In this document: positions 1 through 12,923 of the stretch, in pieces
Layout of the letters: every line of letters begins with the position of its first letter
How positions within the stretch are numbered: the first letter of the stretch is position 1
Origin: a virus
Lineage: Duplodnaviria; Heunggongvirae; Uroviricota; Caudoviricetes
Strand: one strand, 5' to 3'
Length of the DNA stretch: 12,923 nt
IMG/VR virus record: IMGVR_UViG_2534681651_000004
Span: 1-12,923 of that record
The notes under the pieces: model-generated
Told to the model about the DNA's origin: nothing
Seen by the model: the letters and a program-made list of their open reading frames with translations, nothing else
Database searches by the model: none
Position numbers and translations under genes: made by a program

Positions 1-337
1 CTCGCTTTCAGCACCTGTCGTTTCCTTTCTTTTCAGAGGGTATTTTAAATAAAAACATTAAGTTATGACGAAGAAGAACGGAAACGCCTTAAACCGGAAA
101 ATTTTCATAAATAGCGAAAACACGCGAGGTCGCCGCCCCGTAACCTGTCGGATCGCCGGAAAGGACCCGCAAAATGATAATAATTATCATCTACATGTCA
201 CAACGTGCATCTACGCCATCAAACCACGTCAAATAATCAATTATGACGCAGGTATCGTATTAATTGATCTGCATCAACTTAACGTAAAAACAACTTCAGA
301 CAATACAAATCAGCGACACTGAATACAGGGCAACCTC

Positions 338-571
338 ATGTCAACGAAGAACAGAACCCGCAGAACAACAACCCGCAACATCCGCTTTCCTAACCAAATG
401 ATTGAACAAATTAACATCGCTCTTGTTCAAAAAGGGTCCGGGAATTTCTCAGCCTGGGTCATTGAAGCCTGCCGCCGGAGACTGTGCTCAGAAAAAAGAG
501 TTTCGCCTGAAGCAAACAAAGAAAAGAGTGACATTACTGAATTGCTCAGAAAACAGGTTAGACCAGATTGA
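338..571 (+). CDS. Small basic protein, possible ribbon-helix-helix DNA-binding protein (YnfO-like by position)
   Basis: 77-aa ORF with a basic N-terminus (TKNRTRRTTTRN) followed by IRFPNQMIEQINIALVQKGSGNFSAWVIEACRRRL, which looks like a beta-strand plus two helices (RHH). Weak Shine-Dalgarno (SD). Sits immediately upstream of the YdfO-like gene, as ynfO does in Qin. Confidence 0.45.
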   Translation: MSTKNRTRRTTTRNIRFPNQMIEQINIALVQKGSGNFSAWVIEACRRRLCSEKRVSPEANKEKSDITELLRKQVRPD

Positions 572-628
572 AGCAATTTAGATAATCGTGCAGACTACGC
601 CCCCTCATATCACATGGAAGGTACTACA

Positions 629-1039
629 ATGGCTCAGGTTGCCATTTTTAAACAAATATTCGATAAAGTGCGAAATAATTTAAACTATCACTGGTTTTAT
701 TCTGAACTAAAACGTCACAATGTCTCACATTACATTTACTATTTAGCCACAGAGAATATTCATCTTGTTCTTGAAAACGATAATACGGTTTTAATAAAAG
801 GACAGGGTAAGGTTGTAAATGTAAGATTTTCAAAAAATAAATGCCTTATAGAAGCCACCTTAAAAGGATTCAAATCAGGAGAGTTATCATTTTACGAATA
901 CAGGAAAAATCTTGCTACAGCAGGGGTTTTCAGATGGATTACAAATATCCACGAAAACAAAAGGTATTACTATACCTTTGATAATTCATTACTCTTTACT
1001 GAGAACATTCAGAACACTACACAAATATTTCCGCACTAA
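629..1039 (+). CDS. YdfO-like prophage protein (DUF1398 family, recalled)
   Basis: ORF track gives 614..1039; the ATG at 629 is preferred because GGAAGG lies about 8 nt upstream. AT-rich coding sequence. The [14 protein letters not shown]... N-terminus is recalled as Qin YdfO-like. Confidence 0.6.
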
Positions 1040-1325
1040 ATCATAACGTCCGGTTTCTTCCGTGCCAGAACCGGACTCGCTGGCATGATGAAATATGTGT
1101 ACCCGGTAACCCCGGTGTGCATCGTTTTTGATTATTCCCGCACACTCGCGCAGAAGGAGTTCCCCGTCGGGCTACGGTCTCTGTTAATACGGGAATACGG
1201 CGACGATACAGCGCATGATGTGTCAGGCTTGAATACCTTTATCCTTTAAAAGGGATATCAGTTAAGTTATCCCGTGTAGGGTATAAGCCATTATCAAGCC
1301 CACCCGTAGATAGGCTTTGTAATGG

Positions 1326-1583
1326 CTACTTCGCTTTTGCTTCCGCTCGCTTACGCCGGCGCTCTTCTTTCCTCTCGGCTTTTGCCATGTCCATGAATGC
1401 CTGCATGATCGAGTTCCGCATCATGTAGCTAACAAAGTGATGATTGACACAGCCGTTGAGGCGCAGCTGCTCGCCAAACTCATCCACCGAGGCCAATGCT
1501 TCCATCATGCCCTTCTCGCCTTTCATGAACTCTGAGAAGTCGCGCCCCGCTCTGGAGGCGCATTCAATAACACGATCACTCAT
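1326..1583 (-). CDS. Hypothetical 85-aa protein with a lysine/arginine-rich C-terminus, translationally coupled to the KilA-N gene
   Basis: Its ATG (1583..1581) overlaps the TGA stop of the upstream ORF (1582..1580) as ATGA. C-terminus is KAERKEERRRKRAEAKAK. Confidence 0.5.
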   Translation of the reverse strand: MSDRVIECASRAGRDFSEFMKGEKGMMEALASVDEFGEQLRLNGCVNHHFVSYMMRNSIMQAFMDMAKAERKEERRRKRAEAKAK

Positions 1584-2077
1584 CCCGGAAGCCCGGGGAT
1601 CGTAATCTGCAGCTGGTTAGCCAGGGAGTTAATCTCAGCGACCAACACTGGCTTCGTATAGCGCCATGCCGCCAGCCCTTGTCCGCAGAAGCTCGCCATA
1701 TCTTTTTTCTGATCAAACTCATGACACTTCATATTGAGCTGTGCACTTAAGCTGTTGCGATGCTGAAGTTCTCCGGTGAAGTAGTCATCCAGGACTTTAT
1801 AGGCTGCATATTTAAATCCGGGGTTTAGCCATGCTGCATAATCATAAGCAACAAACTTCCCGCCATATGTTCCACCGTGTACACCGCGCTCAGTAAAAAC
1901 CACAGATTCGTGGTTTTTCTCCAGCTCGGCTAAGAACTCTTTGGTCTGCTTGTTTCGCAGGTAGTGGTACGGAGATTCAGATTCACTTTTACCACTGGCT
2001 TTCCACATATCAGTGAGGCAGATCATGCCATCTTCACCGATACGAATTGGTTGATTGAAGAGGGTTAATGATTTCAT
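1580..2077 (-). CDS. KilA-N domain protein (antirepressor/Bro-N-like)
   Basis: 165 aa. Motifs ICLTDMWKASGK ... LRNKQTKEFLAELEK ... HGGTYGGKFVAYDYAAWLNPGF match the KilA-N pattern (ligand-binding N-terminus, GGTW.H core, WL.P.F). Confidence 0.7.
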   Translation of the reverse strand: MKSLTLFNQPIRIGEDGMICLTDMWKASGKSESESPYHYLRNKQTKEFLAELEKNHESVVFTERGVHGGTYGGKFVAYDYAAWLNPGFKYAAYKVLDDYFTGELQHRNSLSAQLNMKCHEFDQKKDMASFCGQGLAAWRYTKPVLVAEINSLANQLQITIPGLPG

Positions 2078-2190
2078 AGCGTGTACCTACTCTTTGAAAT
2101 GAACCTTTGCCGCACAGGAAACCAGCCCACCGAGGCTCGCCAGCACTAACTGGTATCCTCAAAGGCCCATTCCAAAGGGGCAGGTTCGGT

Positions 2191-2219
2191 GTAAAAAAAA
2201 CATGCGTTGCGGTACGCAT
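2191..2219 (-). terminator. Rho-independent terminator (second of a tandem pair after Rz)
   Basis: Minus strand reads ATGCGT-ACCGCA-ACGCAT followed by GTTTTTTTT. Confidence 0.6.
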
Positions 2220-2224
2220 TTATT

Positions 2225-2249
2225 GCAAAAAAGCCCCGCATCGCGAGGC
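2225..2249 (-). terminator. Rho-independent terminator at the end of the lysis operon
   Basis: Minus strand reads GCCTCGC-GAT-GCGGGGC (7-bp stem with one G.U pair) followed by TTTTTTG, about 30 nt downstream of the Rz stop. Confidence 0.65.
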
Positions 2250-2281
2250 TCATTAAATGGACTTTGTGATTTGCAAAAAAA

Positions 2282-2734
2282 TTATTTCAGGCATTGCGTC
2301 CTGATGTACTCCTGCAGGTAGTTAACCTGCGCGGTTATCCTGTCGATTCCACTTCGGAGACGGTAATAATTGAGTTCAGCATCTGCTGTAAGTCTTGGGC
2401 TTTCTCCATCGCCCATGCTGCTGGCTCCGGTCTTTGACTTTGCACATGAGGCGGCGACTTGCAGCCGCTTACGCCCAGCAGAAACATCATCACGGAGACT
2501 TTCGATAGTCGCATTAGCATCAGCAAGCTCCTTTGTATATCTGGCATCGAGTTCTGCTACGTCACGTTGACGCTTCTGCATGTCAGCGATGATGGATGTG
2601 GCTTTGTCGCGCTGTTCTTTGTAGGTCATGGCGTTATCACGGTAATGATTAACAGCCCATGACAGGCAGACGATGATGCAGATAACCAGAGCATAAATAA
2701 TCACGGCAACTCTGCTCACTGCTCTATCCCCCAA
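2282..2734 (-). CDS. Rz: Rz i-spanin (inner-membrane spanin subunit)
   Basis: Strong similarity to lambda Rz ([34 protein letters not shown]; N-terminal TM helix, coiled-coil body). The likely true start is the GTG at 2719, which overlaps the endolysin TGA stop as GTGA; the ORF-track start at 2734 is a TTG. Confidence 0.85.
2335..2520 (-). CDS. Rz1: Rz1 o-spanin (outer-membrane lipoprotein spanin), embedded in the +1 frame of Rz
   Basis: Out-of-frame ORF lying wholly inside Rz. Signal peptide [20 protein letters not shown] with lipobox VSGC, then a proline-rich mature part ([16 protein letters not shown]). Start is chosen at an internal Met of the 70-aa track ORF; the exact start is uncertain. 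Confidence 0.7.
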
Positions 2735-3249
2735 CAGGCTAATGCGCTCTCCTGATCACGACGAATAACCTGACCGTAACAGTTATTTGAACGAAGGCGG
2801 CAATCGCGCCCCCTGTCCTTAATCCACCAGCGAATCGCCTCGCAGGCACCTTTACGATCACCTGCATTCAGCCGCTTATAAAATGTCGACGGAAAACACT
2901 TAGCGGGGCCAATGTTATAGGGACAAAATGACGCGATACCCGCTTTTTGTGGTTCGGTCAGTGTTACTTTAATATTGCGATCCACCCATGCCAGCGCCTT
3001 ATCACGCTCAATGGCATTAACCTGATCGCATTTTTCCTTCGTCAGTGTCATGCCCGGAATAACAGGTTTACCATCTACTATCGTGGCACCGCGACAGATG
3101 GTCCATATGCCGGAACCATCGCGGTATGCCGTAGTGTGGTTACCCTCTTTTTCATCCAGAAACTGGTCAAGTATCTCAGGAGCAGATGCGCCTGCTCCAA
3201 TCAGCGCCAGAACGGCCGCTGACAGGCCGTATTTGATTTTTGCGTTCAT
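2716..3249 (-). CDS. R: SAR endolysin (phage-21 R-type lysozyme, T4-lysozyme fold)
   Basis: 177 aa. N-terminal weakly hydrophobic Gly/Ala-rich signal-anchor-release segment ([18 protein letters not shown]). Catalytic E-x8-D-x5-T triad in [16 protein letters not shown]. Confidence 0.9.
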
Positions 3250-3354
3250 GGATATTTATCAGGATTTATCGGTTTCTGAACCCTGGATATGTTTATCTGC
3301 CCCGGCCTGTTGAATCAGGCGGGGAAAAGGTAAATACAATCAAGAGGATTATTT

Positions 3355-3627
3355 ATGGACAATAACACCATTTCTCTACAGGAGTTGCTCGACTGCATTT
3401 CCAGGCTTCGGGATGATGTAAATGCCCTCACTGTTGCATTTTCATATCTGGCCTTATCAATTCCCAGAGAACAAATGCAACCAACACTGGCATCGCTCCT
3501 GCTTGAATCACGCAACCCCAAATGGTCCCAGGAACAACAAAATTCTTTTAAGTGGCTGGCGGCATTACTGGAAGAAAAATATGCTGGTAAAATTACCATT
3601 TCGGTGGAGTCTTCAGAAAATCAGTAA
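3355..3627 (+). CDS. Hypothetical 90-aa protein encoded antisense to the lysis operon
   Basis: Good SD (AAGAGGA, 7 nt spacer) before the ATG at 3355. Protein-like composition with a predicted helical character. Its 3' end overlaps the 3' end of the minus-strand 3593..3937 gene by 35 bp. Confidence 0.45.
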   Translation: MDNNTISLQELLDCISRLRDDVNALTVAFSYLALSIPREQMQPTLASLLLESRNPKWSQEQQNSFKWLAALLEEKYAGKITISVESSENQ

Positions 3628-3937
3628 TTCTTCCTGGTAGCTTTCCTTTGTAGGTTATCCACACATTCTGCGCCTCTAAAATTACGGGGCGCTTTTCCGG
3701 CGACTGCTCATCCCCTTCACATAACCCGGCAGCAACATCCAGGAAGACCTGTCTGATGCTCCTTCTGGCTGCAGACTCATAAAACTCCAGCGCAGCACCT
3801 TCAACACGGTTCAGCGAGATGTCCAGGTCAAAAATTTCACCGTCAAAGCGTTTTTTGTCTTGTAATGCTACAGTTACCGCAACTTTATTCTCAAAATTGC
3901 GGATCCCTTTCACAATCAGTTCATAGTCTTGGGTCAT
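3593..3937 (-). CDS. Small phage protein inserted between holin and endolysin (YdfR/DUF1327-like by position)
   Basis: 114-aa ORF with an ATG start; a GAGGAG SD lies inside the end of the holin gene. Occupies the slot between S and R where Qin-type prophages carry ydfR. Confidence 0.6.
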   Translation of the reverse strand: MTQDYELIVKGIRNFENKVAVTVALQDKKRFDGEIFDLDISLNRVEGAALEFYESAARRSIRQVFLDVAAGLCEGDEQSPEKRPVILEAQNVWITYKGKLPGRITDFLKTPPKW

Positions 3938-3941
3938 TATA

Positions 3942-4157
3942 TTACTCTCCTCTCGCAGCCTTTCTTCTGTCTTCTCTGATTTTGAAGTACAGATTTGTCA
4001 GATAAGTCAAAAAACCCAGAACCAGGCTACCCAGCACACCTATTGCTGCCCACTGTGAGGGCGTGACTTTATCGAGCAGCTGTAAAAACCAGTAGCCAGC
4101 ACTGCCTGCGGAGGTGCCGTAGGCAATGCCTGTTGAAATTTTGTCCATGGATTTCAT
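3942..4157 (-). CDS. S: Pinholin (S21-type class II holin with dual start)
   Basis: [26 protein letters not shown]...[30 protein letters not shown] is near-identical to recalled phage-21 S21. Dual-start motif M-K-S-M, with a strong GGAGGTGA SD before the ATG at 4157. The ORF-track 90-aa version (start 4214) is probably over-extended. Confidence 0.85.
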
Positions 4158-4254
4158 AGCCTCACCTCCGCACGGAACGGATGGCATAGTTATTATGTGT
4201 AGGCTTTCAGACACATCAATCAGAGCCTTAATTGATATATATGCTGGAGACGAT

Positions 4255-4283
4255 GCAATATAAAAAGCTCGCCGTAGCGAGCT
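4255..4283 (-). terminator. Rho-independent terminator closing the lipoprotein cargo block, upstream of the holin
   Basis: Minus strand reads AGCTCGC-TACG-GCGAGCT followed by TTTTTATATT. Confidence 0.65.
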
Positions 4284-4408
4284 AATAAAATGTATTTCTC
4301 TGATATTATGTTTATTTGTATTAGCTCAGACTTGACATCACAGGTTTCGTATATAGAACATCATCAAATCTGTCAGTTTGCTATGAATGAGATATAGTAA
4401 TTGAAGAG

Positions 4409-4804
4409 CTAACCTCGCATGTCAAAGCCAGATTTCTGAAAATCTCTGTAGACTTCCGGATTGTTGAAGGCCGGAAATTTGGCTTTATGAGCTGCGGACT
4501 TTATCGCTTCGCAATAGGCTTTATCACCGTTACTGGTAGATATTTTTAACGCCGTGCCATCCTGAGAGAATTCCATATGCAACCTGCATTTTTTCCCTTT
4601 CCAGTTATGCGGCTCATCAAGTTGGGCATTAATTGCAGCTCTGATTCCCCGCGCTTGCGCCCCCCATTCATCCTGATCATCCCAGCGTCCTGAACTGCAA
4701 CTACCCGTAGCAGTAGTTTTGTGGCAATCTGAAGGGTGTAAAGGTGTGCATCCCGCAACAAAACCGACCCCAAAAGTCAACATAACGATTTTCTTTAATC
4801 CCAC
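4409..4804 (-). CDS. Lipoprotein with a TolA C-terminal (domain III)-like domain, divergent paralog
   Basis: GTG start with a GAGGAG SD. Signal peptide plus lipobox VAGC (MGLKKIVMLTFGVGFVAGC). C-terminal region ...KGKKCRLHMEFSQDGTALKISTSNGDKAYCEAIKSAAHKAKFPAFNNPEVYRDFQKSGFDMRG shares the two Cys and the PEVY..FQ motif with the neighbouring paralog and with TolA domain III. Confidence 0.75.
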   Translation of the reverse strand: MGLKKIVMLTFGVGFVAGCTPLHPSDCHKTTATGSCSSGRWDDQDEWGAQARGIRAAINAQLDEPHNWKGKKCRLHMEFSQDGTALKISTSNGDKAYCEAIKSAAHKAKFPAFNNPEVYRDFQKSGFDMRG

Positions 4805-4954
4805 TTCTTGCTCCTCAATCCATTAAAATCTCAGCAATAGTAGTTGTTACGTCCGCCACTGGCTCAGAGCTGACTATCCGCTAAATTTAGCTCAGTGCCG
4901 TAGCTGTGTCAGAACAAACCTAAGCCGAAACCGTTTATTACAAAACAATAAATA

Positions 4955-5383
4955 TCAGGGTTTAAAATCCAGCACCCCATTTTGAAATACTTTATATACT
5001 TCCGGCGAAGGGGGGGCAGGTATATCAGCATTCTTTATCGCATTCATCGCTTCACGACATAAATCGAGGTCTCCACTTTCTCTTTTAACCTCCAGTAGAA
5101 GGCCATTCGGGGCCATATGCATTCTCAGTGTACACTCTTTTCCTGAATACTTACTCGCATCCCCGAACTGTTTTTCGATGGCGCTCTTGATTTGATGGGC
5201 ATACAGACGGATATCCTCACTAACATCAGAAGTACGTTCAGATGAACTCACATACTGTGTCTCTATTGCTTTATCGGAGTAATATGATGTACGGTCATGA
5301 TAATTTGTCGATACAGCATCAGTGCACCCGATAATAATCCCACTAATAATCAACATAAGAATTGATGCGCTACGAAAACCCAT
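4955..5383 (-). CDS. Lipoprotein with a TolA C-terminal (domain III)-like domain
   Basis: ATG start with a GAGGA SD. Signal peptide plus lipobox IIGC (MGFRSASILMLIISGIIIGC). C-terminus YAHQIKSAIEKQFGDASKYSGKECTLRMHMAPNGLLLEVKRESGDLDLCREAMNAIKNADIPAPPSPEVYKVFQNGVLDFKP closely matches the recalled E. coli TolA C-terminus (YAGQIKSAIESKFYDASSYAGKTCTLRIKLAPDGMLLDIKPEGGDPALCQAALAAAKLAKIPKPPSQAVYEVFKNAPLDFKP). Confidence 0.8.
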   Translation of the reverse strand: MGFRSASILMLIISGIIIGCTDAVSTNYHDRTSYYSDKAIETQYVSSSERTSDVSEDIRLYAHQIKSAIEKQFGDASKYSGKECTLRMHMAPNGLLLEVKRESGDLDLCREAMNAIKNADIPAPPSPEVYKVFQNGVLDFKP

Positions 5384-5916
5384 TTTTCCTCACATATGTC
5401 ATATAGTAAAGGATTATATATACCGTTGTTTTGGACGCTCAAACAGCGAATCAGATCAAATAAAACGCACATTTGTTAACATTTACACAAAGGCTGCGTG
5501 GAATATTCTGAAAGAATATCCATAATGTGGAGAGAATCTATTGAAGTGCATGGTGCCGGGTGCCTCCCGGTGAATTCAGTACCAGCACCTGAATCCGCGA
5601 TTATCCCATATACCTACTCGCTGATTGCCCCTCCGCACAGGGGGATTCACCATGCCAGTTTCTTTTAACAAACTCCCCGCAAACCAGAGAACAGTCAACC
5701 GCCTGAATTGTGAAGTATTTAAAAATTTCTCCCGCTAACTGATACCCGGCTAACAGTCTGGCGTTTTCTTTTTCAGCAACGGGAAAGCAACAACCACCAC
5801 ACCCGCCACCAGCACACCGTCAGCCAGCACTGACATTATCCGGCTGCTGCAATGCCATTCACAAAAACAGTAAGCAATCACTTTTTACCGTAACAGGTGA
5901 TAATCCAGATATGTAT

Positions 5917-6270
5917 CTACCCCAGATGAGTAATCCGAAGTTCATCCATACCACAGGTCCTGGCTATTCTGTTGTACTCCTGAACAAGAGCAAATAATTC
6001 TGAATTAGCAACCATGAACTCATCGCAAACCCTCTGTATAGCATCACTATTCAGAATAATAACGTCTCTTCCCGAAAGACGATCAGGAGCACAGAACAAA
6101 ACTGTCAAACGGCTGAAGGCCTTTGCTCGTGCTGCATTGACTATATCAATACGCTGCCTAAGGATGAAACACCCCGACGCCTCATCAATATTCACTCTAC
6201 CCACACCATATGAATGATAAATATTTAATGCTGAAAAAACCATTAGACCGTATAACAAACACTCAATCAA
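5917..6270 (-). CDS. Hypothetical protein (possible decayed gene)
   Basis: 117-aa ORF with a TTG start and no convincing SD; the first internal ATG (6243) also lacks an SD. Followed by about 400 bp without long ORFs. Confidence 0.35.
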   Translation of the reverse strand: MIECLLYGLMVFSALNIYHSYGVGRVNIDEASGCFILRQRIDIVNAARAKAFSRLTVLFCAPDRLSGRDVIILNSDAIQRVCDEFMVANSELFALVQEYNRIARTCGMDELRITHLG

Positions 6271-6380
6271 TACTTAACAGAACTTTTATTTTTGACAAAC
6301 ATATTATGTTTTCAACAATATCCTGAGCCAGGTATATTCCAGTATAAGGCTCTGCCGGAAGGAATCTGGAAGAATGAATA

Positions 6381-6457
6381 TGGCGCGCTGTACTGGATTC
6401 GAACCAGTGACCGATTGCTTAGAAGGCAATTGCTCTGTCCGGCTGAGCTAACAACGC
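6381..6457 (-). tRNA. tRNA-Arg (anticodon UCU, reads AGA), phage argO-like
   Basis: Reverse complement GCGTTGTTAGCTCAGCCGGACAGAGCAATTGCCTTCTAAGCAATCGGTCACTGGTTCGAATCCAGTACAGCGCGCCA folds as a cloverleaf: 7-bp acceptor stem, anticodon stem ATTGC/GCAAT, loop CTTCTAA, T-loop TTCGAATCC, encoded CCA. Confidence 0.85.
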
Positions 6458-6470
6458 TGAATACCGATAA

Positions 6471-6550
6471 TGGACCGCCATCGGGGACCCGCCCCCGCAC
6501 CAACAACCCTGTTATCGTGTCGTCTGCTCTTCCTGATAAGCTAATGGCGG
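6471..6550 (-). pseudogene. Degenerate tRNA-like element (possible argN-like remnant)
   Basis: Reverse complement CCGCCATTAGCTTATCAGGAAGAGC...CGGGGGCGGGTCCCCGATGGCGGTCCA has a perfect 7-bp acceptor stem (CCGCCAT/ATGGCGG), a D-arm (GCTT...GAGC), a T-stem and 3' TCCA. It lacks a canonical anticodon arm and has a non-consensus 6-nt T-loop. Confidence 0.45.
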
Positions 6551-6557
6551 TTTGTGA

Positions 6558-6633
6558 TGGTGGCCCTTGCTGGATTTGAACCAGCGACCTGGCGATTATG
6601 AGTCGCTCGCTCTCACCACTGAGCTAAAGGGCC
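6558..6633 (-). tRNA. tRNA-Ile2 (anticodon CAU, lysidine type; ileX/ileZ-like)
   Basis: Reverse complement GGCCCTTTAGCTCAGTGGTGAGAGCGAGCGACTCATAATCGCCAGGTCGCTGGTTCAAATCCAGCAAGGGCCACCA closely resembles recalled E. coli ileX, including the CUCAUAA anticodon loop, and has an encoded CCA. Confidence 0.8.
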
Positions 6634-6668
6634 GGGAGCAGAATAATAACGGTCCGTAATTAATTCCG

Positions 6669-6696
6669 CAATAAAAAACCCGCTCGGCGGCGGGTT
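6669..6696 (-). terminator. tR'-like rho-independent terminator downstream of pR'
   Basis: Minus strand reads AACCCGC-CGCCGA-GCGGGTT followed by TTTTTTAT, between the Q stop and the tRNA cluster. Confidence 0.7.
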
Positions 6697-6735
6697 GTAG
6701 AAACTCTTCTAACGTCAGGCATAAAAAGCCCATCA

Positions 6736-6771
6736 TTATGACGAATTTACCACAGATTCCGGAAAAATCAA
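6736..6771 (-). promoter_or_regulatory. pR'-like late promoter with probable qut/pause region
   Basis: Minus strand has TTGATT, a 16-nt spacer and TAAATT immediately after the Q stop. A -10-like CATAAT in the initial transcribed region fits a sigma70-dependent pause as in lambda pR'. Confidence 0.55.
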
Positions 6772-6776
6772 CCTTG

Positions 6777-7598
6777 TTACCTAGTTACCTTTTTTAACTG
6801 CCGCTCAGCCCATGCTTCTTCAATATCAAACCGGGTCACCAGCGCATCATAGAATTTCTTAACTGTTTTTTCCCATGACGCGCGTGTTATCTGGTTTGTC
6901 ACCTCGCATATAGCATTAAATGCCTCCGTTGATGGTAGTCTTTCATAGCCACGACCACCACAACGCTGGCAGTCTCTGATAACAGGCATACCACGTTTTA
7001 CCGACTCTTCACGGTGAATGGCGACACCACGCCCACGGCAATCCTTACAGGCGGTGGAAACCTCACCCTTTCCGCCACACTCCGGACAGGCAACTTTTAC
7101 CACCTCCCTGACTTTTTTCCATTCTTCCCAGTAAGACGGATACACACCTTTCGTACACTTTGCCCATACCGGCGGCTTACCATCCGGATACTGGACCTTG
7201 TTTGTAAAAACTACGCTTTCAATAAATTTTTCCCCATAGCAACAAGGGCACTGCTTTTTACTCGCTGCGCTGCGGGCATAATCCTCAAAAGCGTACGAAG
7301 CCATAATGCGCATCACTACCGGTTTTATTTCTGCCGGAAGTTTTCTCAACGCCGCCACACGATCGCACCGACTGAGTGCATAATCTGCCAGTAATTCTGT
7401 TGCCCGCGCCCTGTCATTCATACTGATGCCCATTTTCCCCAGGAACGCAGAAAACCCCATCTCAGCCCGATTCTGTGTCATGCCCTGCGCGGCCATCACA
7501 TCAGTGATACTCAGCGCATCTTTTGACGTTGAAGCCGATGCATCGGTCAGGCAAGGGGATTTTGGGGAGTAGTATTTCGGTAAATCTTCCAGTTTCAT
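6777..7598 (-). CDS. Q: Late antitermination protein Q (Phage_antitermQ family)
   Basis: 273 aa with multiple CxxC zinc-ribbon motifs (CPCCYGEK, CPECGGKG, CKDCRGRG, CQRCGGRG). Sits directly upstream of pR'/tR'. Its ATG overlaps the RusA TGA stop as ATGA. Confidence 0.8.
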   Translation of the reverse strand: MKLEDLPKYYSPKSPCLTDASASTSKDALSITDVMAAQGMTQNRAEMGFSAFLGKMGISMNDRARATELLADYALSRCDRVAALRKLPAEIKPVVMRIMASYAFEDYARSAASKKQCPCCYGEKFIESVVFTNKVQYPDGKPPVWAKCTKGVYPSYWEEWKKVREVVKVACPECGGKGEVSTACKDCRGRGVAIHREESVKRGMPVIRDCQRCGGRGYERLPSTEAFNAICEVTNQITRASWEKTVKKFYDALVTRFDIEEAWAERQLKKVTR

Positions 7599-7969
7599 TT
7601 TTTGACCTGCTCTTCATGCATTATGGGGTAAATCTTCACCCCCATACGTCCACCAGATACTGGCTGACCACGAACGATATTGATTTCATCAAACTGCTCA
7701 TCGTCCATTAACACTCCCGCATGCGTCAGCGCATCCAGCGGTGCTTTCAGGATATTGTCCAGGTCGCGACGACGCTTATCCGGTGGCTCTGCAATCACCT
7801 TTATCGCCAGCCTTCCGGACAGGCTTAATTTCAGCCGCTGCTGGCGAACAATAAGCGCCACAGCACGGCGATAACGCTTTCCCTCCTCCGAGATAAAATA
7901 TGTGCTGCCACGGCGTCGCCAGTAAGTGTTCACCGTCGGCGGGTAAGGTAAAACCAAATCTATGAGCAT
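7595..7969 (-). CDS. rusA: RusA Holliday-junction resolvase
   Basis: 124 aa. LPYPPTVNTYWRRRG ... PDKRRRDLDNILKAPLDALTHAGVLMDDEQ matches recalled RusA (PWPPS.N.YY / PDRRRRDLDNL.KA.FDALT). Confidence 0.85.
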   Translation of the reverse strand: MLIDLVLPYPPTVNTYWRRRGSTYFISEEGKRYRRAVALIVRQQRLKLSLSGRLAIKVIAEPPDKRRRDLDNILKAPLDALTHAGVLMDDEQFDEINIVRGQPVSGGRMGVKIYPIMHEEQVKK

Positions 7970-7981
7970 CAGTCACCTCTT

Positions 7982-9031
7982 TTACCCAAGCACGCCAGTT
8001 GCAAAGGCGTGATCAAGAAAACGAAAAATTAAATCAACCTGAGAACCATGCTTTTCTTCGAACGCCAGCGGATCCGCATGAAGCTCGTTGTGATGCTCCC
8101 GACACAGCGGTAGCGTGAAAATATCGTGAGATTTTGTCCCCATTCCGCCCTGACCATGACCAATCAGGTGATGGGGATCGTCGGTTGGCTTACCACAACA
8201 CGCACACGGCTGTGTCTTCACCCAGCGTGTGTATTTCTCGTTAACCCAGCGGCGACGTTTAGGTCGTTTCATAAAAGATTCCGGAGACTCAGGATCAACG
8301 GCAATGCTGACCACCGTCTTTTCCTGTGGTGGGTTCTGTTGCTGGTGGGCGTGAGGCAGCGGCGCAAGATTTTTTGTGCGCTGTTTCAGTATGCTGGTGG
8401 CGGTCTGCTCTCCCGGTACGATGTCGCTTTCACGGTACATTGAGCGGATTTTTTCCGCACGCAACCCCAGCGAACGACGTAATACCGCTTCCGGTAGCGC
8501 GTCCGCCACCTGATTGCGGACCGCCCACCAGGATAATTCAGCCAGAGATAATTCACGCTCCTGCGTACCGCTTATTGCGTGACCGATGACGTCAATCATC
8601 CATGCTGACAGGTTTTGATGAGCAAGTTGCTCGAGTGATTCGGATGTCTGGTCACGCAGCTGGTTGTCGCAGTGCCAGCACAACACCATTGCGCCGGTAC
8701 CATAACGGTGAATGACGGTTTCGCTGTGATGATAATCGCCGTGTGGCCACTGGCAGGATTTAATATGGCGCAACAGCCAGTCAGACAATGCACCAGCACC
8801 ACAAGCAGCACGAATCACCCGTGCGTTACTGAAAAACGGCAGCAATGTTTTGTCTTCCACCAGCGGCTGGCGAGCGGCAGGAACGACCCCGGACGGCAGA
8901 TTACGCATGCTTTTCGGTTCCGGCTCCACCAGTAACCGGGTATTGTGGAATACCGGCATGGATTCACGGCCCGGCTTAACGATCACCAGCCCGAGTTCCG
9001 GTACCAGAACAGGTCGAAGTAATACCCGCAC
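7982..9031 (-). CDS. DUF968-family protein (YdfU-like) with a C-terminal Cys/His HNH-like motif
   Basis: 349 aa with a GTG start preceded by GGAGG. C-terminus CACCGKPTDDPHHLIGHGQGGMGTKSHDIFTLPLCREHHNELH. Positioned before rusA and Q as ydfU is in Qin. Confidence 0.7.
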   Translation of the reverse strand: MRVLLRPVLVPELGLVIVKPGRESMPVFHNTRLLVEPEPKSMRNLPSGVVPAARQPLVEDKTLLPFFSNARVIRAACGAGALSDWLLRHIKSCQWPHGDYHHSETVIHRYGTGAMVLCWHCDNQLRDQTSESLEQLAHQNLSAWMIDVIGHAISGTQERELSLAELSWWAVRNQVADALPEAVLRRSLGLRAEKIRSMYRESDIVPGEQTATSILKQRTKNLAPLPHAHQQQNPPQEKTVVSIAVDPESPESFMKRPKRRRWVNEKYTRWVKTQPCACCGKPTDDPHHLIGHGQGGMGTKSHDIFTLPLCREHHNELHADPLAFEEKHGSQVDLIFRFLDHAFATGVLG

Positions 9032-9032
9032 G

Positions 9033-9422
9033 TTACCTCCAGATGCGTTGCTGGAATGTGTGGGACGGACGCGGTGGGCGTTCGGAGTAAGGCAATCTGA
9101 CTGAGATTATCCAGTGACGGTAGTCGAGGCTAAGGGCTTTTTTAACCTCGTATCCGCGCCTGCGGTAACACTGAATTATCCATTCAGCCTGCTCTTCAGT
9201 GCATGGTGGATGCTGGAACCAGTCCGATTTGAATGCATGAAAACGCCGTCCGCACCTGCTGGCAAAGACGGCAGAATCATCAGAATTGTGTAATTTGGTA
9301 TCGTGCGCCATCGGTTGTCTCTGCTGGCGCAGCAGGTGCCAGTTGTTCAGGCTGGCGTATAAAGTATAAATAAACTGGTTCCAGTGTAAAGCCCCTACAT
9401 TAATGGAATAAAAGTCAAACAA
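9033..9422 (-). CDS. Hypothetical nin-region protein (start uncertain)
   Basis: ORF-track start is a TTG with no SD; the first ATG is at 9311 (92 aa). Stop lies 1 nt before the start of the downstream DUF968 gene. Confidence 0.45.
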   Translation of the reverse strand: MFDFYSINVGALHWNQFIYTLYASLNNWHLLRQQRQPMAHDTKLHNSDDSAVFASRCGRRFHAFKSDWFQHPPCTEEQAEWIIQCYRRRGYEVKKALSLDYRHWIISVRLPYSERPPRPSHTFQQRIWR

Positions 9423-9576
9423 CAGATTGTTGGGATAAACACAACGCTTATTATTAAAAGCGATTAGATAAATTAAATTTTAATGTTATGCAATTTTACC
9501 AGATCACCATAACATCTCGTTTGAAACCACCGAAACAACAACCATATCAATATTGATTATGTTAAAGTGAGTAAAT

Positions 9577-9663
9577 ATGGAAAACAACAAATCTGCACAT
9601 TACGCTCCTTTTTTATCTGTGATACTTTTTGTTTTATGCTGTGTGTGGGCATTATTTTTATAA
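9577..9663 (+). CDS. Candidate small hydrophobic peptide (28 aa), convergent with hok
   Basis: MENNKSAHYAPFLSVILFVLCCVWALFL has a polar N-terminus and a 17-residue hydrophobic stretch. Modest SD (GTGAG), AT-rich upstream region. Below the ORF-track size cutoff. Confidence 0.3.
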   Translation: MENNKSAHYAPFLSVILFVLCCVWALFL

Positions 9664-9671
9664 AAATATTT

Positions 9672-9701
9672 ACAGATAAAATAAACCCGCCGAAGCGGGT
9701 T
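9672..9701 (-). terminator. Rho-independent terminator of the hok transcript
   Basis: Minus strand reads AACCCGC-TTCG-GCGGGTT followed by TATTTTAT, about 70 nt after the hok stop. Confidence 0.7.
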
Positions 9702-9769
9702 AAGTGCGGGTGCATTGAGGATGCCTGACACATCAGAGGTGGCGAGGGATTTCTCCCTCGCCAAGTCTC

Positions 9770-9925
9770 TTACTCCTCAGGTTCGTAGACTGTGAAGACA
9801 GCGACCTCCGTCTGGCCGGTTCGGATTCGTACCTCGCAGAGGTCTTTCCTCGTTACCAGTGCCGTCACTATGACGGTTAAACAGATGACGATCAGGGCGA
9901 TTAACATCGCCTTTTGCTGCTTCAT
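9770..9925 (-). CDS. hok: Hok-family type I toxin (HokD/RelF-like)
   Basis: MKQQKAMLIALIVICLTVIVTALVTRKDLCEVRIRTGQTEVAVFTVYEPEE is near-identical to recalled HokD. AAGGAG SD upstream of the ATG at 9925. The 70-aa ORF-track version (start 9982) is an in-frame upstream extension, possibly mok-like. Confidence 0.9.
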   Translation of the reverse strand: MKQQKAMLIALIVICLTVIVTALVTRKDLCEVRIRTGQTEVAVFTVYEPEE

Positions 9926-10136
9926 AGCCTGCTTCTCCTTGCCTTTCGGCACGTAAGAGGCTAACCTAGATTTGCCGTTCATAGATTGAGCCTCAGATTA
10001 ATGTTAAGCGTCTTGCAGGACGCGTAATGTTAACTGGGGCTTTTCTCTATCTGCCTTTGGTGTTCATGCCTGAGACAGATAGCCTCAAGCACCCGCAGCC
10101 ATTCTACTTAACTCCCGTCACCTGGCCAATATAAAA

Positions 10137-10226
10137 TCAATCAGAAAGGCGATCCATAAGAACAACAGCAAGACAATAAATTGCCATTACAGCTGCAATA
10201 GCCAGCGCACATTTGAGAACCAGCAC
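10137..10226 (-). CDS. Candidate small hydrophobic peptide (29 aa) with a strong SD
   Basis: AGGAGG, a 5-nt spacer, then a GTG start; encodes MLVLKCALAIAAVMAIYCLAVVLMDRLSD. Not on the ORF track (below size cutoff). A 17-bp perfect palindrome lies about 50 bp upstream. Confidence 0.3.
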   Translation of the reverse strand: MLVLKCALAIAAVMAIYCLAVVLMDRLSD

Positions 10227-10275
10227 GACAACCTCCTGTATTGGACGTACACCAGTCCTGATAAATATGAGGCTC

Positions 10276-10292
10276 TCTCATCATTGATGAGA
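10276..10292. promoter_or_regulatory. 17-bp perfect palindrome TCTCATCATTGATGAGA (candidate operator)
   Basis: Perfect 8-1-8 inverted repeat between the AT-rich 345-aa gene and the hok unit, upstream of the small ORF 10137..10226. Confidence 0.4.
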
Positions 10293-10511
10293 TACAACTA
10301 TTGGGTATAGTTTCTGTGATTTTGTTCTGTAGAAATGGAACACAACAACCAGTAACCACCAGCGATTCTTTAAATACGCCAAATCCGACGCAAGCTAACC
10401 TTCTAGTCCGCTTTGGGCGAAGACCGGACGTTCGATAGGTGTGAACTAGTAACTTTAAAAACATTTAATTACCAGTAAAAAAACAAGAATATACTATCAC
10501 TTTTCCAATTT

Positions 10512-11549
10512 TTAATTACCCTTATCAATTTTAAGAAATACATTTCCAATCTCATCAGAATAATCCTGTATTATTTTTGAAATGACGGCATGATCAATGG
10601 TTGGTTTTAAGAATAAAAGTGTCACAGTAATCTGCATCAAACTAATAGCAGTAGCATGGGCTGGATCAGCCATTCCTGAATCACTTTGCCCGACCAATAA
10701 TATATCATCACCAGTTTCACAGAGACCAAGCCTATTTCTCATTGCCTTGGAACCGGTGTGTACATTCTGACTCGCCCACTTATAATAAGGGCGCATGTGT
10801 TCTAACTGAACATCTTTCTCAATAGCTCCAAACCCCACTTTATTATGGTTAGGGAAAATATAAGATGCCCACCCATAATTATCTGCATATTTTTTGCCGT
10901 ATTTTTTTATTAATAGATCAAATTGAACTTTACACTCAGCTATTTCTTCAATAGTTGGACCTTTTGCTTCTAACCGGTGCTCGTACTTTTTGTGTTCCAA
11001 CATTCCAGTATATGAATCAACCACTTCATGGTAGTAAAAGCGCTCAGCACACTCTTTTCCATGCTTTGCTATAAACATAGCTGTGGCTGCTACCTCATGA
11101 AGTGCTCGCCATCTCGCTTGGGCAGCATCTGCAAATCCATTCTTTAAGAGACACAAAATTTCGTTGGCGATGTGGCAAGCTCTTGCGTGATGCCGAACGA
11201 CTAAATCAAAAACCACATCCTCTTCAGAGGCAGCTTGTGGTCTATAAGAACGATTGAACTCTTCACCGGACTCCGTGCATATCACTATAAGTGTTTCGAG
11301 CAAATCAAAAGCCTCTGCCCATCTTGAAATATTTCTCTCAACAAATTCATCACAAAGAGAACGATGTTCTCTAAGCATTGCATTGGCCGAGCCAATAAGA
11401 GATTTTTTAACGACAATGGCTATTTTGGGAATTAGGTTATTAATTTCTTTTTCGATATCAGCGTCACCAGATAAATCAAGCCTCTCTTTTAAAAGGCTGT
11501 CTATGTGCTCAAGCAAAATATTATGAAAAGTATCCATGTCATATCTCAA
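10512..11549 (-). CDS. AT-rich foreign hypothetical protein, candidate defence/abortive-infection protein (possible HEPN-like Rx4-6H motifs)
   Basis: 345-aa ORF with an ATG start, visibly lower GC than its neighbours and flanked by AT-rich intergenic DNA. Contains RHHARACH and RWRALH (Rx4-6H-type) motifs. No confident family assignment from memory. Confidence 0.7.
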   Translation of the reverse strand: MRYDMDTFHNILLEHIDSLLKERLDLSGDADIEKEINNLIPKIAIVVKKSLIGSANAMLREHRSLCDEFVERNISRWAEAFDLLETLIVICTESGEEFNRSYRPQAASEEDVVFDLVVRHHARACHIANEILCLLKNGFADAAQARWRALHEVAATAMFIAKHGKECAERFYYHEVVDSYTGMLEHKKYEHRLEAKGPTIEEIAECKVQFDLLIKKYGKKYADNYGWASYIFPNHNKVGFGAIEKDVQLEHMRPYYKWASQNVHTGSKAMRNRLGLCETGDDILLVGQSDSGMADPAHATAISLMQITVTLLFLKPTIDHAVISKIIQDYSDEIGNVFLKIDKGN

Positions 11550-11642
11550 TAAGTTTTAAATCCATGTGGCACACCCATAATATAAAAATAAACAGCATGC
11601 CAGTCTAAGTCTGGCTATTTGTATATCATATCACCTGAAACA

Positions 11643-11671
11643 TTGACAGATGTAACCCACCAAAATATTAT
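11643..11671 (+). promoter_or_regulatory. Near-consensus sigma70 promoter on the plus strand (TTGACA-N17-TATTAT)
   Basis: TTGACA at 11643..11648, exact 17-nt spacer, TATTAT at 11666..11671. It points rightward, antisense to the 11765..12190 gene; no plus-strand ORF follows. Confidence 0.5.
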
Positions 11672-11764
11672 CAATGACCACTCTTGGCACAAAGCGAACA
11701 ACCACGCTAGCTCTACCTTGTGCCATGAAAATGTCAATGCATATCTGAACTAATGCCCTTTAAT

Positions 11765-12190
11765 CTAGTAACGTCTAAAATACCTAACATTTCCCTGATA
11801 AAATGCCATAATGCGCTGCATAACTTCGCTCTTCCGGCACTCGCGACAGATTATGTTTAGACAACTATCGTAGCGACGTATTTCTCCGTCAGGTAATGAC
11901 CAGATAAGGTCCGGATCAACCGCAGATGGTTTCTTCAGCTTTGCCCTTGAGAGCTTTTTACGGGCATTTTGCCAGTCCTTACGCGCCTGTTCAGACGGGA
12001 ATAACCCGTAACCAGAGTTGTATACATCGCCACTGGCAACCAGCTCTCTGGCCAGAACGCTCATCAGATATCTTGTTGCCCCAGTTTTAGTTTCCAGTTG
12101 TCGTAACGTCTCGCGCCCACTCTGGCGTACGAGTTCAACAACCTGCCCTTTAATTTTTTCCCGCTCTTCTTGTGTAAAAACTTTTGCCAC
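11765..12190 (-). CDS. Small hypothetical protein with a probable helix-turn-helix near the N-terminus
   Basis: 141 aa with a GTG start preceded by AGGAGGG. The segment TLRQLETKTGATRYLMSVLAREL looks like an HTH. Basic C-terminal half with CxxC (CRECR). Confidence 0.6.
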   Translation of the reverse strand: MAKVFTQEEREKIKGQVVELVRQSGRETLRQLETKTGATRYLMSVLARELVASGDVYNSGYGLFPSEQARKDWQNARKKLSRAKLKKPSAVDPDLIWSLPDGEIRRYDSCLNIICRECRKSEVMQRIMAFYQGNVRYFRRY

Positions 12191-12230
12191 AAGCCCTCCT
12201 GAAAATTACCTCATGACCAGAAATTAACAC

Positions 12231-12884
12231 TTACCCCCTGAAGCCCGGCGGAATTTCGTTATCCGGTTCAGAAATATGATTCACACAACGCTGGTTGTTC
12301 GTGCCGCTTACCGGGAGCAACCAGGGGTTCTCAAAATTCCGGTCCGGTCCAAAAAACGTCGTCGCTCGCTGAACAAATTCCGTTCCCGTTTTCCCGGTAG
12401 CCGCCAAGTATCTTGCGTAACGCCTCACGCCATCCAGCATGGCCTCTGGTGGCACCCCCTCGCGTAATCTGGCCTTCCAGGCACTGAAAGCGGATTTCTT
12501 CGGGTTTGCTCCGGCACGCAACGGGTACTCCCGCCAGACCTGTTCGAACACATCCGGATAATCCACTCGTCCCACAGACAGCCCGGTGTTTTCCGGGACT
12601 ACCCGATCGGCTTCCCGCTGAATGGCGGAATCGGCTTCAGGCTGCTGCAGTTGGTGTGATTGTTCCGGCCTTTGGGTCATCACCTGCTGCACAGCGCCCG
12701 AATCGGCTTTCAGCGCATACGCTGAATCGGCTTCCGGTGTCGTGCCTGCTGGCTGACCAGGATTGACGGTCTGAACATCCCCTGCCTGGTTCGTGGCGTT
12801 TTTTACGCCATGGACCATAGTGTTTTGATCTTCTTGATCTGTATCTTTATCTGTATCTTTATCTGTCGTGACTCGTCGTGACAT
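12231..12884 (-). CDS. Hypothetical protein, possibly the C-terminal part of a longer replication-type protein whose reading frame stays open to the window edge
   Basis: 217 aa from the ATG at 12884, but the frame has no stop through 12923, so the gene may start beyond the window. N-terminal acidic low-complexity region (TTDKDTDKDTDQEDQ; Pro/Gln/Ala-rich linker); conserved-looking C-terminal domain (VDYPDVFEQVWREYPLRAGANPKKSAFSAWKARL...). Confidence 0.6.
   Translation of the reverse strand: MSRRVTTDKDTDKDTDQEDQNTMVHGVKNATNQAGDVQTVNPGQPAGTTPEADSAYALKADSGAVQQVMTQRPEQSHQLQQPEADSAIQREADRVVPENTGLSVGRVDYPDVFEQVWREYPLRAGANPKKSAFSAWKARLREGVPPEAMLDGVRRYARYLAATGKTGTEFVQRATTFFGPDRNFENPWLLPVSGTNNQRCVNHISEPDNEIPPGFRG
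12837..12866. repeat. 12-bp tandem direct repeat (ATCTGTATCTTT, about 2.5 copies)
   Basis: atctgtatcttt atctgtatcttt atctgt; encodes the DKDTDKDTD repeat on the minus strand. Confidence 0.7.
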
Positions 12885-12913
12885 GTGCGTGACATTTCGT
12901 GATGCGCCGTGAC
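12867..12913. repeat. Iteron-like array: five CGTGAC/T hexamers at 10-11 bp spacing
   Basis: CGTGAC at 12867, 12877, 12888 and 12908, and CGTGAT at 12898, giving helical-turn periodicity. The array straddles the start of the edge ORF. Confidence 0.6.
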
Positions 12914-12923
12914 AATCGCCATT

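Follow-up and report, generated by a model that had tools for sequence, protein, structure and literature searches.

The Tol and Ton systems are the two hubs through which bacteriocins are imported, and bacteriocins of the cloacin and E3 types are Tol-dependent. Free C-terminal domain III of TolA (TolA-III) in the periplasm reportedly has two effects, tolerance of colicins E1, E2, E3 and A and a leaky outer membrane, as Levengood-Freyermuth and colleagues are said to have found in 1993. The I pili of I-complex plasmids are the receptor of phage If1. The same phage uses TolA-III as its co-receptor (structure 2X9A). The N1 domain of the filamentous-phage protein g3p, colicin N and the N-terminus of TolB dock on the β3 edge strand of TolA, A415–K420 (PMC4339652, PMC7391070), where docking depends critically on hydrogen bonds made by the backbone at D418 and K420 and where mutations that prevent TolB docking cause a full tol phenotype (PMC4339652). 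Colicin A binds at the opposite edge, on β2 (L375–P380), with cation-π contacts to K368, K379 and K396 (PMC3365938). A g3p N1 domain present in the periplasm sequesters TolA and makes the cell resistant to colicin A and phage (PMC10424213). Here we describe two adjacent genes, referred to as A and B, in a stretch of 12,923 nucleotides of tailed-phage DNA (IMG/VR record IMGVR_UViG_2534681651_000004, positions 1 to 12,923; this whole stretch is called the window below), each of which encodes a predicted lipoprotein carrying a TolA-III domain. The two belong to separate families, A on prophages and B also on plasmids and chromosomes, and the reading that we favour, while holding it tentatively, is that they serve as tethered decoys for invaders that enter through Tol.

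Gene A (4955..5383, minus strand) encodes a lipoprotein precursor of 142 amino acids and gene B (4409..4804, minus strand), which starts with GTG, one of 131 amino acids; both open reading frames (ORFs) lie where the initial annotation of this DNA had placed them. That annotation had also proposed that each product carries a domain resembling TolA-III, keeps the cysteines of the TolA-III disulfide and the C-terminal strand, and begins with a lipoprotein signal peptide, and all of this was borne out. With the Pfam family PF06519 (cut-off 25 bits) A scores 82.6 bits (E 2.4e-23) and B 53.6 bits (E 2.7e-14), and phmmer comparison with the E. coli TolA-III structures 1S62, 3QDP, 2X9A and 1TOL gives E 5e-28 for A and 2e-8 for B. 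The domain (residues 55–142 of A, 4958..5221; residues 44–131 of B, 4412..4675) aligns without gaps to residues 334–421 of E. coli TolA and stops at the same last residue, with 52 of 88 positions identical in A (59%) and 26 of 88 in B (30%). Cys363 and Cys388, the disulfide pair as judged by sequence, are present in both proteins, which end in PEVYKVFQNGVLDFKP (A) and PEVYRDFQKSGFDMRG (B). AlphaFold predicts for both a domain with a predicted local distance difference test (pLDDT) of about 90 behind a disordered N-terminus, and in Foldseek superpositions the model of A matches 2X9A_B with a target-normalised template modelling score (TM-score) of 0.96 and a root-mean-square deviation (rmsd) of 0.6 Å, and that of B matches 3QDP with 0.92 and 1.1 Å. 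By every sequence and structure criterion applied, A and B are members of the TolA C-terminal domain family.

The resemblance to TolA ends there. Matches to the full-length TolA models TIGR02794 and PRK09510 are limited to positions 265–387, the last ~100 positions of the models. Domain I of TolA, which spans the membrane and binds TolQR, is absent from A and B, where a predicted cleavable lipoprotein signal peptide takes its place; the long helical domain II is absent as well, the lipobox and domain III being separated by only 24–34 residues that AlphaFold predicts to be disordered. A and B are therefore not orthologues of TolA. Domain III alone is sufficient for A to pass the NCBIfam model TIGR02794 (75.6 bits against a cut-off of 59.45), so that RefSeq, through its PGAP annotation, lists it as "tolA: cell envelope integrity protein TolA"; it stays below the cut-off of PRK09510 (107.8 against 213), and B is below the cut-offs of both models. 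The name tolA is misleading for A, which covers only the last quarter of TolA.

In A, the signal peptide and lipobox (5324..5383) read MGFRSASILMLIISGIIIGC, with TD following the cleavage point; they comprise a basic residue (R4), a hydrophobic core and the lipobox IIGC, with its cysteine at residue 20 and Thr at position +2. The corresponding segment of B (4748..4804) is (M)GLKKIVMLTFGVGFVAGC, or (GTG)MGLKKIVMLTFGVGFVAGC with TP following the cleavage point, and has basic residues K4 and K5, a hydrophobic core, the lipobox VAGC with Cys19, and again Thr at +2. Both lipoboxes conform to the pattern [LVI][ASTVI][GAS]C, and their cysteine is invariant in the family alignments. Because both proteins have Thr at +2, and because Asp at +2 occurs in none of 61 lipobox-bearing relatives (see below), the sorting rule, applied to sequence only, predicts sorting of the outer-membrane type. 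The start of B deserves comment. RefSeq lists a shorter form of 124 amino acids that begins at an internal ATG and thereby loses the basic n-region of the signal peptide. We favour the GTG at 4804, since the position of this start codon (GTG or ATG) and the Shine-Dalgarno sequence GAGGAG before it are conserved in four unrelated contexts, namely a phage, a plasmid, an Enterobacter chromosome and a Serratia chromosome.

What lies between lipobox and domain differs between the two proteins. The linker of A (34 residues, 5222..5323) is predicted to be disordered (pLDDT below 50 for residues 1–50) and its ratio of nonsynonymous to synonymous substitution rates (dN/dS) is 0.35–0.59. In B the same position is held by a module of residues 20–43 (4676..4747), TPLHPSDCHKTTATGSCSSGRWDD, with two extra cysteines arranged as C-x8-C. 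The stretch CxPLHPSxCHKTTATGSCSSGRWDDQDEWG, or in pattern form CxPLHPSxC-x8-C-SSGRWDDQDEWG, is nearly invariant across genera and, with a dN/dS of 0.02–0.12, is as constrained as the TolA-III domain of B itself; the linkers had been described as strongly diverged, which does not hold for B. AlphaFold confidence is low over this module. A C-x8-C loop directly after the lipobox recurs in the distant clusters P0170, P0177, P0179 and P0189. We considered whether SSGRWDDQDEWG might be a TolB box, given its resemblance to the colicin sequence DGSGWSSENNPWG, and set the idea aside as speculation: the spacing of the Trp is off by one and the motif is lost in more distant clusters.

The two docking edges of TolA-III are preserved to different degrees. 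At β3 (417–421) A has LDFKP, as does E. coli TolA, and B has FDMRG; at β2 (375–380) the E. coli sequence LLDIKP is represented by LLEVKR in A and by ALKIST in B; and the three lysines contacted by colicin A (K368, K379 and K396) correspond to His, Lys and Lys in A and to Glu, Ser and His in B. Judged by its residues, A thus appears to be a close mimic of both docking surfaces, with the colicin A site largely kept. B keeps the β3 edge strand (D418 is conserved, and Arg takes the place of K420) and has lost the determinants for colicin A. Since docking on the edge strands proceeds mostly through backbone hydrogen bonds, both proteins would be expected to be competent at β3.

A and B share only ~30% identity, and A is nearer to E. 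coli TolA (59%) than it is to B. This observation, together with the conserved flank that each gene has of its own, rules out an origin by tandem duplication; what had been taken for diverged tandem copies are two separate families. Recent capture from E. coli tolA is ruled out too, because a blastn search with A misses the chromosomal tolA that every E. coli carries. Family A is essentially confined to E. coli and Shigella. It was found by blastn in 898 of 5426 complete E. coli genomes, nearly always on the chromosome, and diverged variants (down to ~66% protein identity) stand alone in the interval between the antiterminator gene Q and the holin gene S of other lambdoid prophages, with AraC/HTH genes, nanS-p esterase, DUF1378, DUF826 and holin genes as neighbours. 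Family B extends further, with homologues 78–89% identical in Citrobacter, Enterobacter, Serratia, Klebsiella, Raoultella and Salmonella; among the 5426 E. coli genomes, 1269 carry it, 536 of the places being on plasmids. The pair is found at a coverage of at least 80% in 774 of these genomes. In E. coli both families are restricted to prophages and plasmids, and the Enterobacter and Serratia homologues are chromosomal, so the family is not specific to phages, contrary to what the initial annotation had implied. Among sequenced phages in INPHARED the genes occur in one only, mEp460_ev081, and both are placed in PHROG 5772, "unknown function". Values of dN/dS are 0.08–0.15 for B and 0.24–0.36 for A, which points to purifying selection on both families.

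On plasmids, B has a recurrent position. In all six sampled plasmids it immediately follows nikB, the relaxase gene of the I complex, which is intact in plasmids of the IncI1/B/O, IncK2/Z and IncI-gamma/K1 types and in an IncF plasmid with a MOBP relaxase, and is a remnant in plasmids of the pO157 type (loci L017 and L021), where B lies close to toxB in pO157. B fills the gap between the convergent genes nikB and trbC in IncB/O, IncK/Z and IncI-gamma plasmids (L001, L019, L020 and L022). It is not part of the backbone of all IncI1 plasmids: R64, the classical IncI1 plasmid and also the classical host plasmid for If1, carries no B gene and has no gene between nikB and trbC, so that B in this gap is cargo. 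In the Enterobacter cloacae complex B is found at a fixed, non-prophage chromosomal site between genes of housekeeping type. In Serratia marcescens (L007–L010, 8957–10736) a B homologue located between nrdDG and the phn operon is followed immediately by genes for a GmrSD_N protein and a two-domain HEPN protein, a pair that looks like a small defence islet.

The two families belong to a broader class. Searching 1.84 billion representative proteins with a profile gave 579 TolA-III matches at E<=0.001. Among the best 149 of these 579, 61 have a lipobox, and nearly all of those are proteins of 115–160 amino acids; the C-terminal LDF(K/R) strand is usually retained in the class, and its named members are all from Enterobacterales. 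A further type of TolA-III lipoprotein, of 144 amino acids, is encoded beside a thioredoxin-fold gene on a Klebsiella IncR plasmid. Others reside on Klebsiella ColRNAI plasmids of ~10 kb, which encode a bacteriocin with cloacin translocation, colicin E2-type receptor and E3-like cytotoxic domains, an E3-like immunity gene and a lysis gene. On p10K_L111 (L011, 2654–3387), a TolA-III lipoprotein of 123 amino acids (LLLTAC followed by K) overlaps a secreted protein of 121 amino acids with a TonB C-terminal domain (TonB-CTD; Pfam E 9e-11), and the two genes are transcribed divergently from the bacteriocin gene. This module of bacteriocin, TolA-III and TonB-CTD genes is present at a coverage of at least 80% in at least 246 plasmids. 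Some related cloacin plasmids have, in the aligned stretch, an annotated lipoprotein of the Exc2 family and neither a TolA nor a TonB gene.

In the window, A and B form the body of a cassette (~4256..5574, minus strand) that comprises the 3' part of a leader resembling STnc100, a promoter-like site, A, B and a terminator. Among 80 IMG/VR prophage contigs with a 99% identical A gene, the order promoter-A-B-terminator is invariant and the sequence at least 99% identical, compared with an average identity of 91% for the adjacent holin gene. Half of these loci (40 of 80) share homology with the window only as far as ~5574, a point within the STnc100 copy, and in L096 the block follows a different Q gene, coding for 180 amino acids, with no tRNA genes and with an STnc100 copy of its own before A. 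The GC content of the cassette is 41.8%, that of the whole window 46.0%. A unit of ~1.3 kb is thus passed from one phage backbone to another, in every case into the interval between Q and S.

The signals of the cassette are as follows. Directly upstream of A is a copy of the STnc100-family prophage small RNA (5494..5684, minus strand; Rfam RF02076, 111 bits against a gathering score of 47), in which the body is conserved and the canonical GC-rich terminator with its U tract is replaced by a weak AT-rich hairpin; in the absence of the canonical terminator, read-through into A is plausible. A sigma-70-like promoter match, TTGAGC-18 nt-TATAAT (5413..5442, minus strand; 10 of 12 consensus positions), lies 30 nt upstream of the start of A and is seen in 79 of 80 cassette copies. 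No terminator was called in the spacer between A and B (4805..4954, minus strand), which makes co-transcription of the two genes probable; the last ~45 nt of this spacer, including GAGGAG, travel with B in every context. An intrinsic terminator separates B from the holin gene, as had been proposed at first (4256..4283, minus strand): a hairpin of a 7-bp stem and a 4-nt loop, AGCTCGC-TACG-GCGAGCT, is followed by the T run TTTTTATATT. It is present in all 77 cassette copies with room for one. It is specific to the phage cassette and is missing from plasmid and chromosomal copies of B, and so does not form part of family B. RNA folding of the 3' region shows the terminator hairpin alone (overall z-score -0.15), and the internal repeats found in the region are only short and chance-like. 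STnc100 copies bracket cargo genes in the Q-to-S interval elsewhere as well: besides the copy in the window (5494–5684), they were seen in L018 (6482–6694 and 8454–9433), where one lies just 3' of the A gene and four more stand in tandem, and in L096 (5704–5890). As backbone homology breaks inside the STnc100 copy (~5574), these repeats may be recombination joints that shuffle Q-to-S cargo.

The window itself covers the part of a lambdoid prophage that serves late regulation and lysis, with its genes read on the minus strand. Prophages of many E. coli genomes are 99–100% identical to it, as is the temperate phage mEp460_ev081. In the direction of transcription, the order is DUF968, RusA, Q, a tR'-like terminator, two tRNA genes, two small ORFs, A, B, the terminator, an S21-type holin, YdfR/DUF1327, lysozyme and Rz. 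The antiterminator Q (273 amino acids, 6777..7598) flanks the cassette on the upstream side, and the lysis cassette opens with the holin gene (3942..4214; Pfam PF04971, E 5.5e-35). Matching flanks are found in Stx2 phages with stx2AB in the same interval; together with the gene order, this confirms the earlier placement of A and B at the Q-to-S cargo site. The tR'-like terminator (6677–6696, minus strand) lies between Q and the tRNA genes (6558–6633 and 6381–6457, minus strand), which are 3' of Q. ARAGORN reads the tRNA at 6558–6633 as Met (anticodon CAT) and RefSeq as tRNA-Ile; it is probably an ileZ-type tRNA-Ile2 that is read via lysidine modification, as in Stx phages. The two small ORFs between the tRNAs and the cassette (5750–6270) encode a 117-amino-acid protein (PHROG 2873) and a 43-amino-acid DUF3927 protein; they are specific to this backbone and missing from half of the cassette-bearing contigs. 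The early-right region has a hok/sok type I toxin-antitoxin locus at 9770–10094 (Rfam sok, 9920–10094, 110 bits), with the RefSeq hokD gene close to the Rfam match and a DUF5677 gene (10512–11549) further upstream.

We tentatively favour the reading that A and B act as outer-membrane-tethered decoys for Tol-dependent colicins and filamentous phages, and for this we infer their outer-membrane location, ligand binding, a protective phenotype and expression in the lysogen. A tether of 25–35 residues would hold the TolA-III domain just beneath the porins, TolC and the bases of pili, where the translocation domains of group A colicins and the N1 domain of g3p emerge. There, the β3 edge strand of both proteins and the β2 site of A could capture these ligands by β-strand augmentation. 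Without domains I and II there would be no coupling to TolQR and the proton-motive force, captured ligands would get no further, and tolerance of the lysogen or plasmid host would result. With A close to E. coli TolA and B presenting a different surface, the two together would cover a wider range of ligands. The decoy role gains plausibility from the position of B beside nikB, from the occurrence of TolA-III and TonB-CTD genes on cloacin plasmids and from the copy beside GmrSD and HEPN genes. Protection is favoured over lysis because the terminator insulates the holin gene, because B has homes outside phages, and because of the placement on I plasmids and the pairing with TonB-CTD, by which both routes of bacteriocin import are covered. 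A broader and more doubtful proposal is that mobile elements of Enterobacterales carry import-hub decoys as a class not recognised before, namely envelope-tethered TolA-III and, on some plasmids, also secreted TonB-CTD, which would soak up Tol- and Ton-dependent bacteriocins and g3p ahead of the energised machines; I-complex plasmids might in this way offset the vulnerability to If1 that their pili create, and lambdoid prophages might stack two surfaces for broader protection of the lysogen.

Several observations weigh against the decoy role. B is conserved across genera (78–89% identity, low dN/dS) and yet only 30% identical to E. coli TolA-III, a pattern more in keeping with a host target that is itself conserved, such as the N-terminus of TolB, than with arms-race mimicry; the decoy model assigns no role to its conserved Cys-loop module; and in Enterobacter it occupies a fixed, non-mobile chromosomal site. 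No family in PADLOC-DB v2 matches A, B or the Klebsiella TolA-III lipoprotein at E<=0.1. The promoter-like site is only a consensus match, which leaves expression in the lysogen from a promoter of their own putative, and it is not a conserved feature of family A, being absent from the diverged A variants. A conserved target in the host is at the centre of the main rival explanation, which we regard as rather unlikely, namely deliberate interference with Tol-Pal: tethered TolA-III would bind the N-terminus of TolB, uncouple TolB-Pal from inner-membrane TolA and loosen the outer membrane, aiding release of virions at lysis, vesiculation or, on the Klebsiella plasmids, release of bacteriocin. A and B would then be late genes, reached by transcription from pR' through the terminator under Q antitermination. 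In the Q-dependent late unit they do immediately precede the holin-endolysin-spanin cassette, both keep the TolB-docking strand β3, at which blocked docking of TolB results in a full tol phenotype (PMC4339652), and related genes are found on plasmids that release bacteriocins; the conservation of B across genera is what such a target would lead one to expect. The leakiness reported for free periplasmic TolA-III also fits, and one and the same molecule might equally well disturb Tol-Pal. Other features of the same loci fit poorly. A dedicated terminator parts B from the holin, and the cassette's own leader and promoter-like site give it the layout typical of cargo expressed in lysogens; B is also at home on conjugative plasmids, pO157 and fixed chromosomal sites that have no lysis function; the Klebsiella pair is divergent from the bacteriocin-lysis operon and outside it, and its TonB-CTD partner is not known to loosen the outer membrane; and most lambdoid phages lyse their hosts without any of these genes.

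The fixed site in the Enterobacter cloacae complex would be accounted for more readily if B in particular were an accessory factor of envelope physiology, neither defensive nor lytic: a paralogous outer-membrane partner of Tol-Pal or of another periplasmic system, in which the Cys-loop and TolA-III would bind a conserved host protein and tune, for example, Pal mobilisation or envelope stress, the gene having later been picked up by mobile elements. The very low dN/dS, N-terminal module included, and the breadth of the short TolA-III class (a lipobox in 61 of the best 149 of 579 matches) agree with such a role. We nevertheless judge it improbable, as the E. coli families are found on prophages and plasmids only, in 16–23% of genomes, as the recurrent relaxase-adjacent cargo sites, bacteriocin plasmids and defence islet point to functions in conflict, and as family A closely mimics the docking surfaces of host TolA-III. 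Another explanation keeps the conflict and changes the opponent: A and B would exclude some other invader that uses Tol, such as a tailed phage injecting its DNA or a contact-dependent or other toxin not so far known to need TolA, or B would find its target through its module and not through TolA-III. Genes carried by prophages at this position frequently act at the cell surface, the Cys-loop module of B is otherwise unexplained, and B has lost the colicin A contacts; against this, there is no specific candidate ligand and the data never point away from the documented ligands of TolA-III, so that we give this explanation little weight as well. That the genes are non-functional debris, fragments of tolA captured by phages and now decaying, is barely credible. 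RefSeq does call A tolA, with only the last quarter of TolA covered, but the ORFs are intact and have newly acquired a signal peptide and lipobox, dN/dS is 0.08–0.36, and hundreds of genomes carry the genes with a conservation of at least 99%; the blastn search with A that finds 898 of 5426 genomes and misses chromosomal tolA speaks against a recent fragment, and the selection and distribution data together effectively refute this explanation.

RefSeq already annotates the domain, and the genes as such were therefore known. The novelty lies in recognising that a lipoprotein signal joined to TolA-III alone is a widespread architecture on mobile elements, in contexts that point to a decoy role. 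Full-text searches of the literature found no study of a prophage- or plasmid-encoded TolA-III lipoprotein, and no TolA-III fold was found among the viral structures of BFVD at E<=0.001. If A and B are decoys, about one in six E. coli genomes (A) and one in four (B) would carry, as prophage or plasmid genes, proteins with the potential to weaken the attack of group A colicins and Tol-dependent filamentous phages. This would bear on the colicin sensitivity of natural strains and on bacteriocin-based therapeutics, on the use of M13, If1 and other pilus-specific phages against plasmid-bearing bacteria, and on how prophages and plasmids pay their way. If they instead interfere with Tol-Pal, they would be natural inhibitors of a target that has been considered for sensitising bacteria to antibiotics. 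Under either reading the RefSeq name tolA misleads.

Among described systems, the closest in structure is E. coli TolA-III itself (1S62, 3QDP, 1TOL, 2X9A), which shares with A and B the Pfam family, the C-terminal end point, the disulfide cysteines and a fold of a helix, a short helix, two strands, two helices and the C-terminal β3. Unlike A and B, TolA has domains I and II, the link to TolQR and the proton-motive force, and a location in the tol-pal operon; A and B, for their part, have a lipoprotein signal peptide and are genes of mobile elements, and B lacks the lysines contacted by colicin A. The recombinant periplasmic TolA-III that is said to have been studied in 1993 offers the same situation as that proposed for A and B, an isolated domain III in a tolA+ cell, and its reported phenotype is the one that A and B would be expected to give, with the difference that it was reportedly a soluble, overproduced laboratory construct, whereas A and B are natural, predicted to be lipid-anchored and presumably made at a low level. 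In genetic organisation the nearest parallels are the lambdoid morons and Q-to-S cargo (Bor, Lom, stx, nanS-p), which resemble the A-B cassette in being late-region cargo units with their own terminator, in their exchange between backbones and in their use of the stx interval. The cassette has, like morons, a terminator of its own (4256–4283) and an insertion between backbone genes (different Q genes on one side, ~91% identical holins on the other); its gene content is different, and expression from its own promoter is putative. In mechanism, the exclusion caused by g3p (pIII) of filamentous phages concerns the same entry step and occupies the same interface between g3p and TolA-III (PMC10424213); the sequences are unrelated, and A and B would be its mirror image, in that pIII titrates the receptor of the host whereas they would titrate the invader. 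Llp of T5 and Cor of phi80, N15 and mEp phages are, likewise, small phage-encoded outer-membrane lipoproteins, which exclude competitors and some colicins. They have no homology to A and B, and they bind and plug the outer-membrane receptor FhuA, whereas A and B copy a periplasmic co-receptor; if the decoy role is real, it would represent a new mechanism of protection, in which that co-receptor is copied rather than a surface receptor masked.

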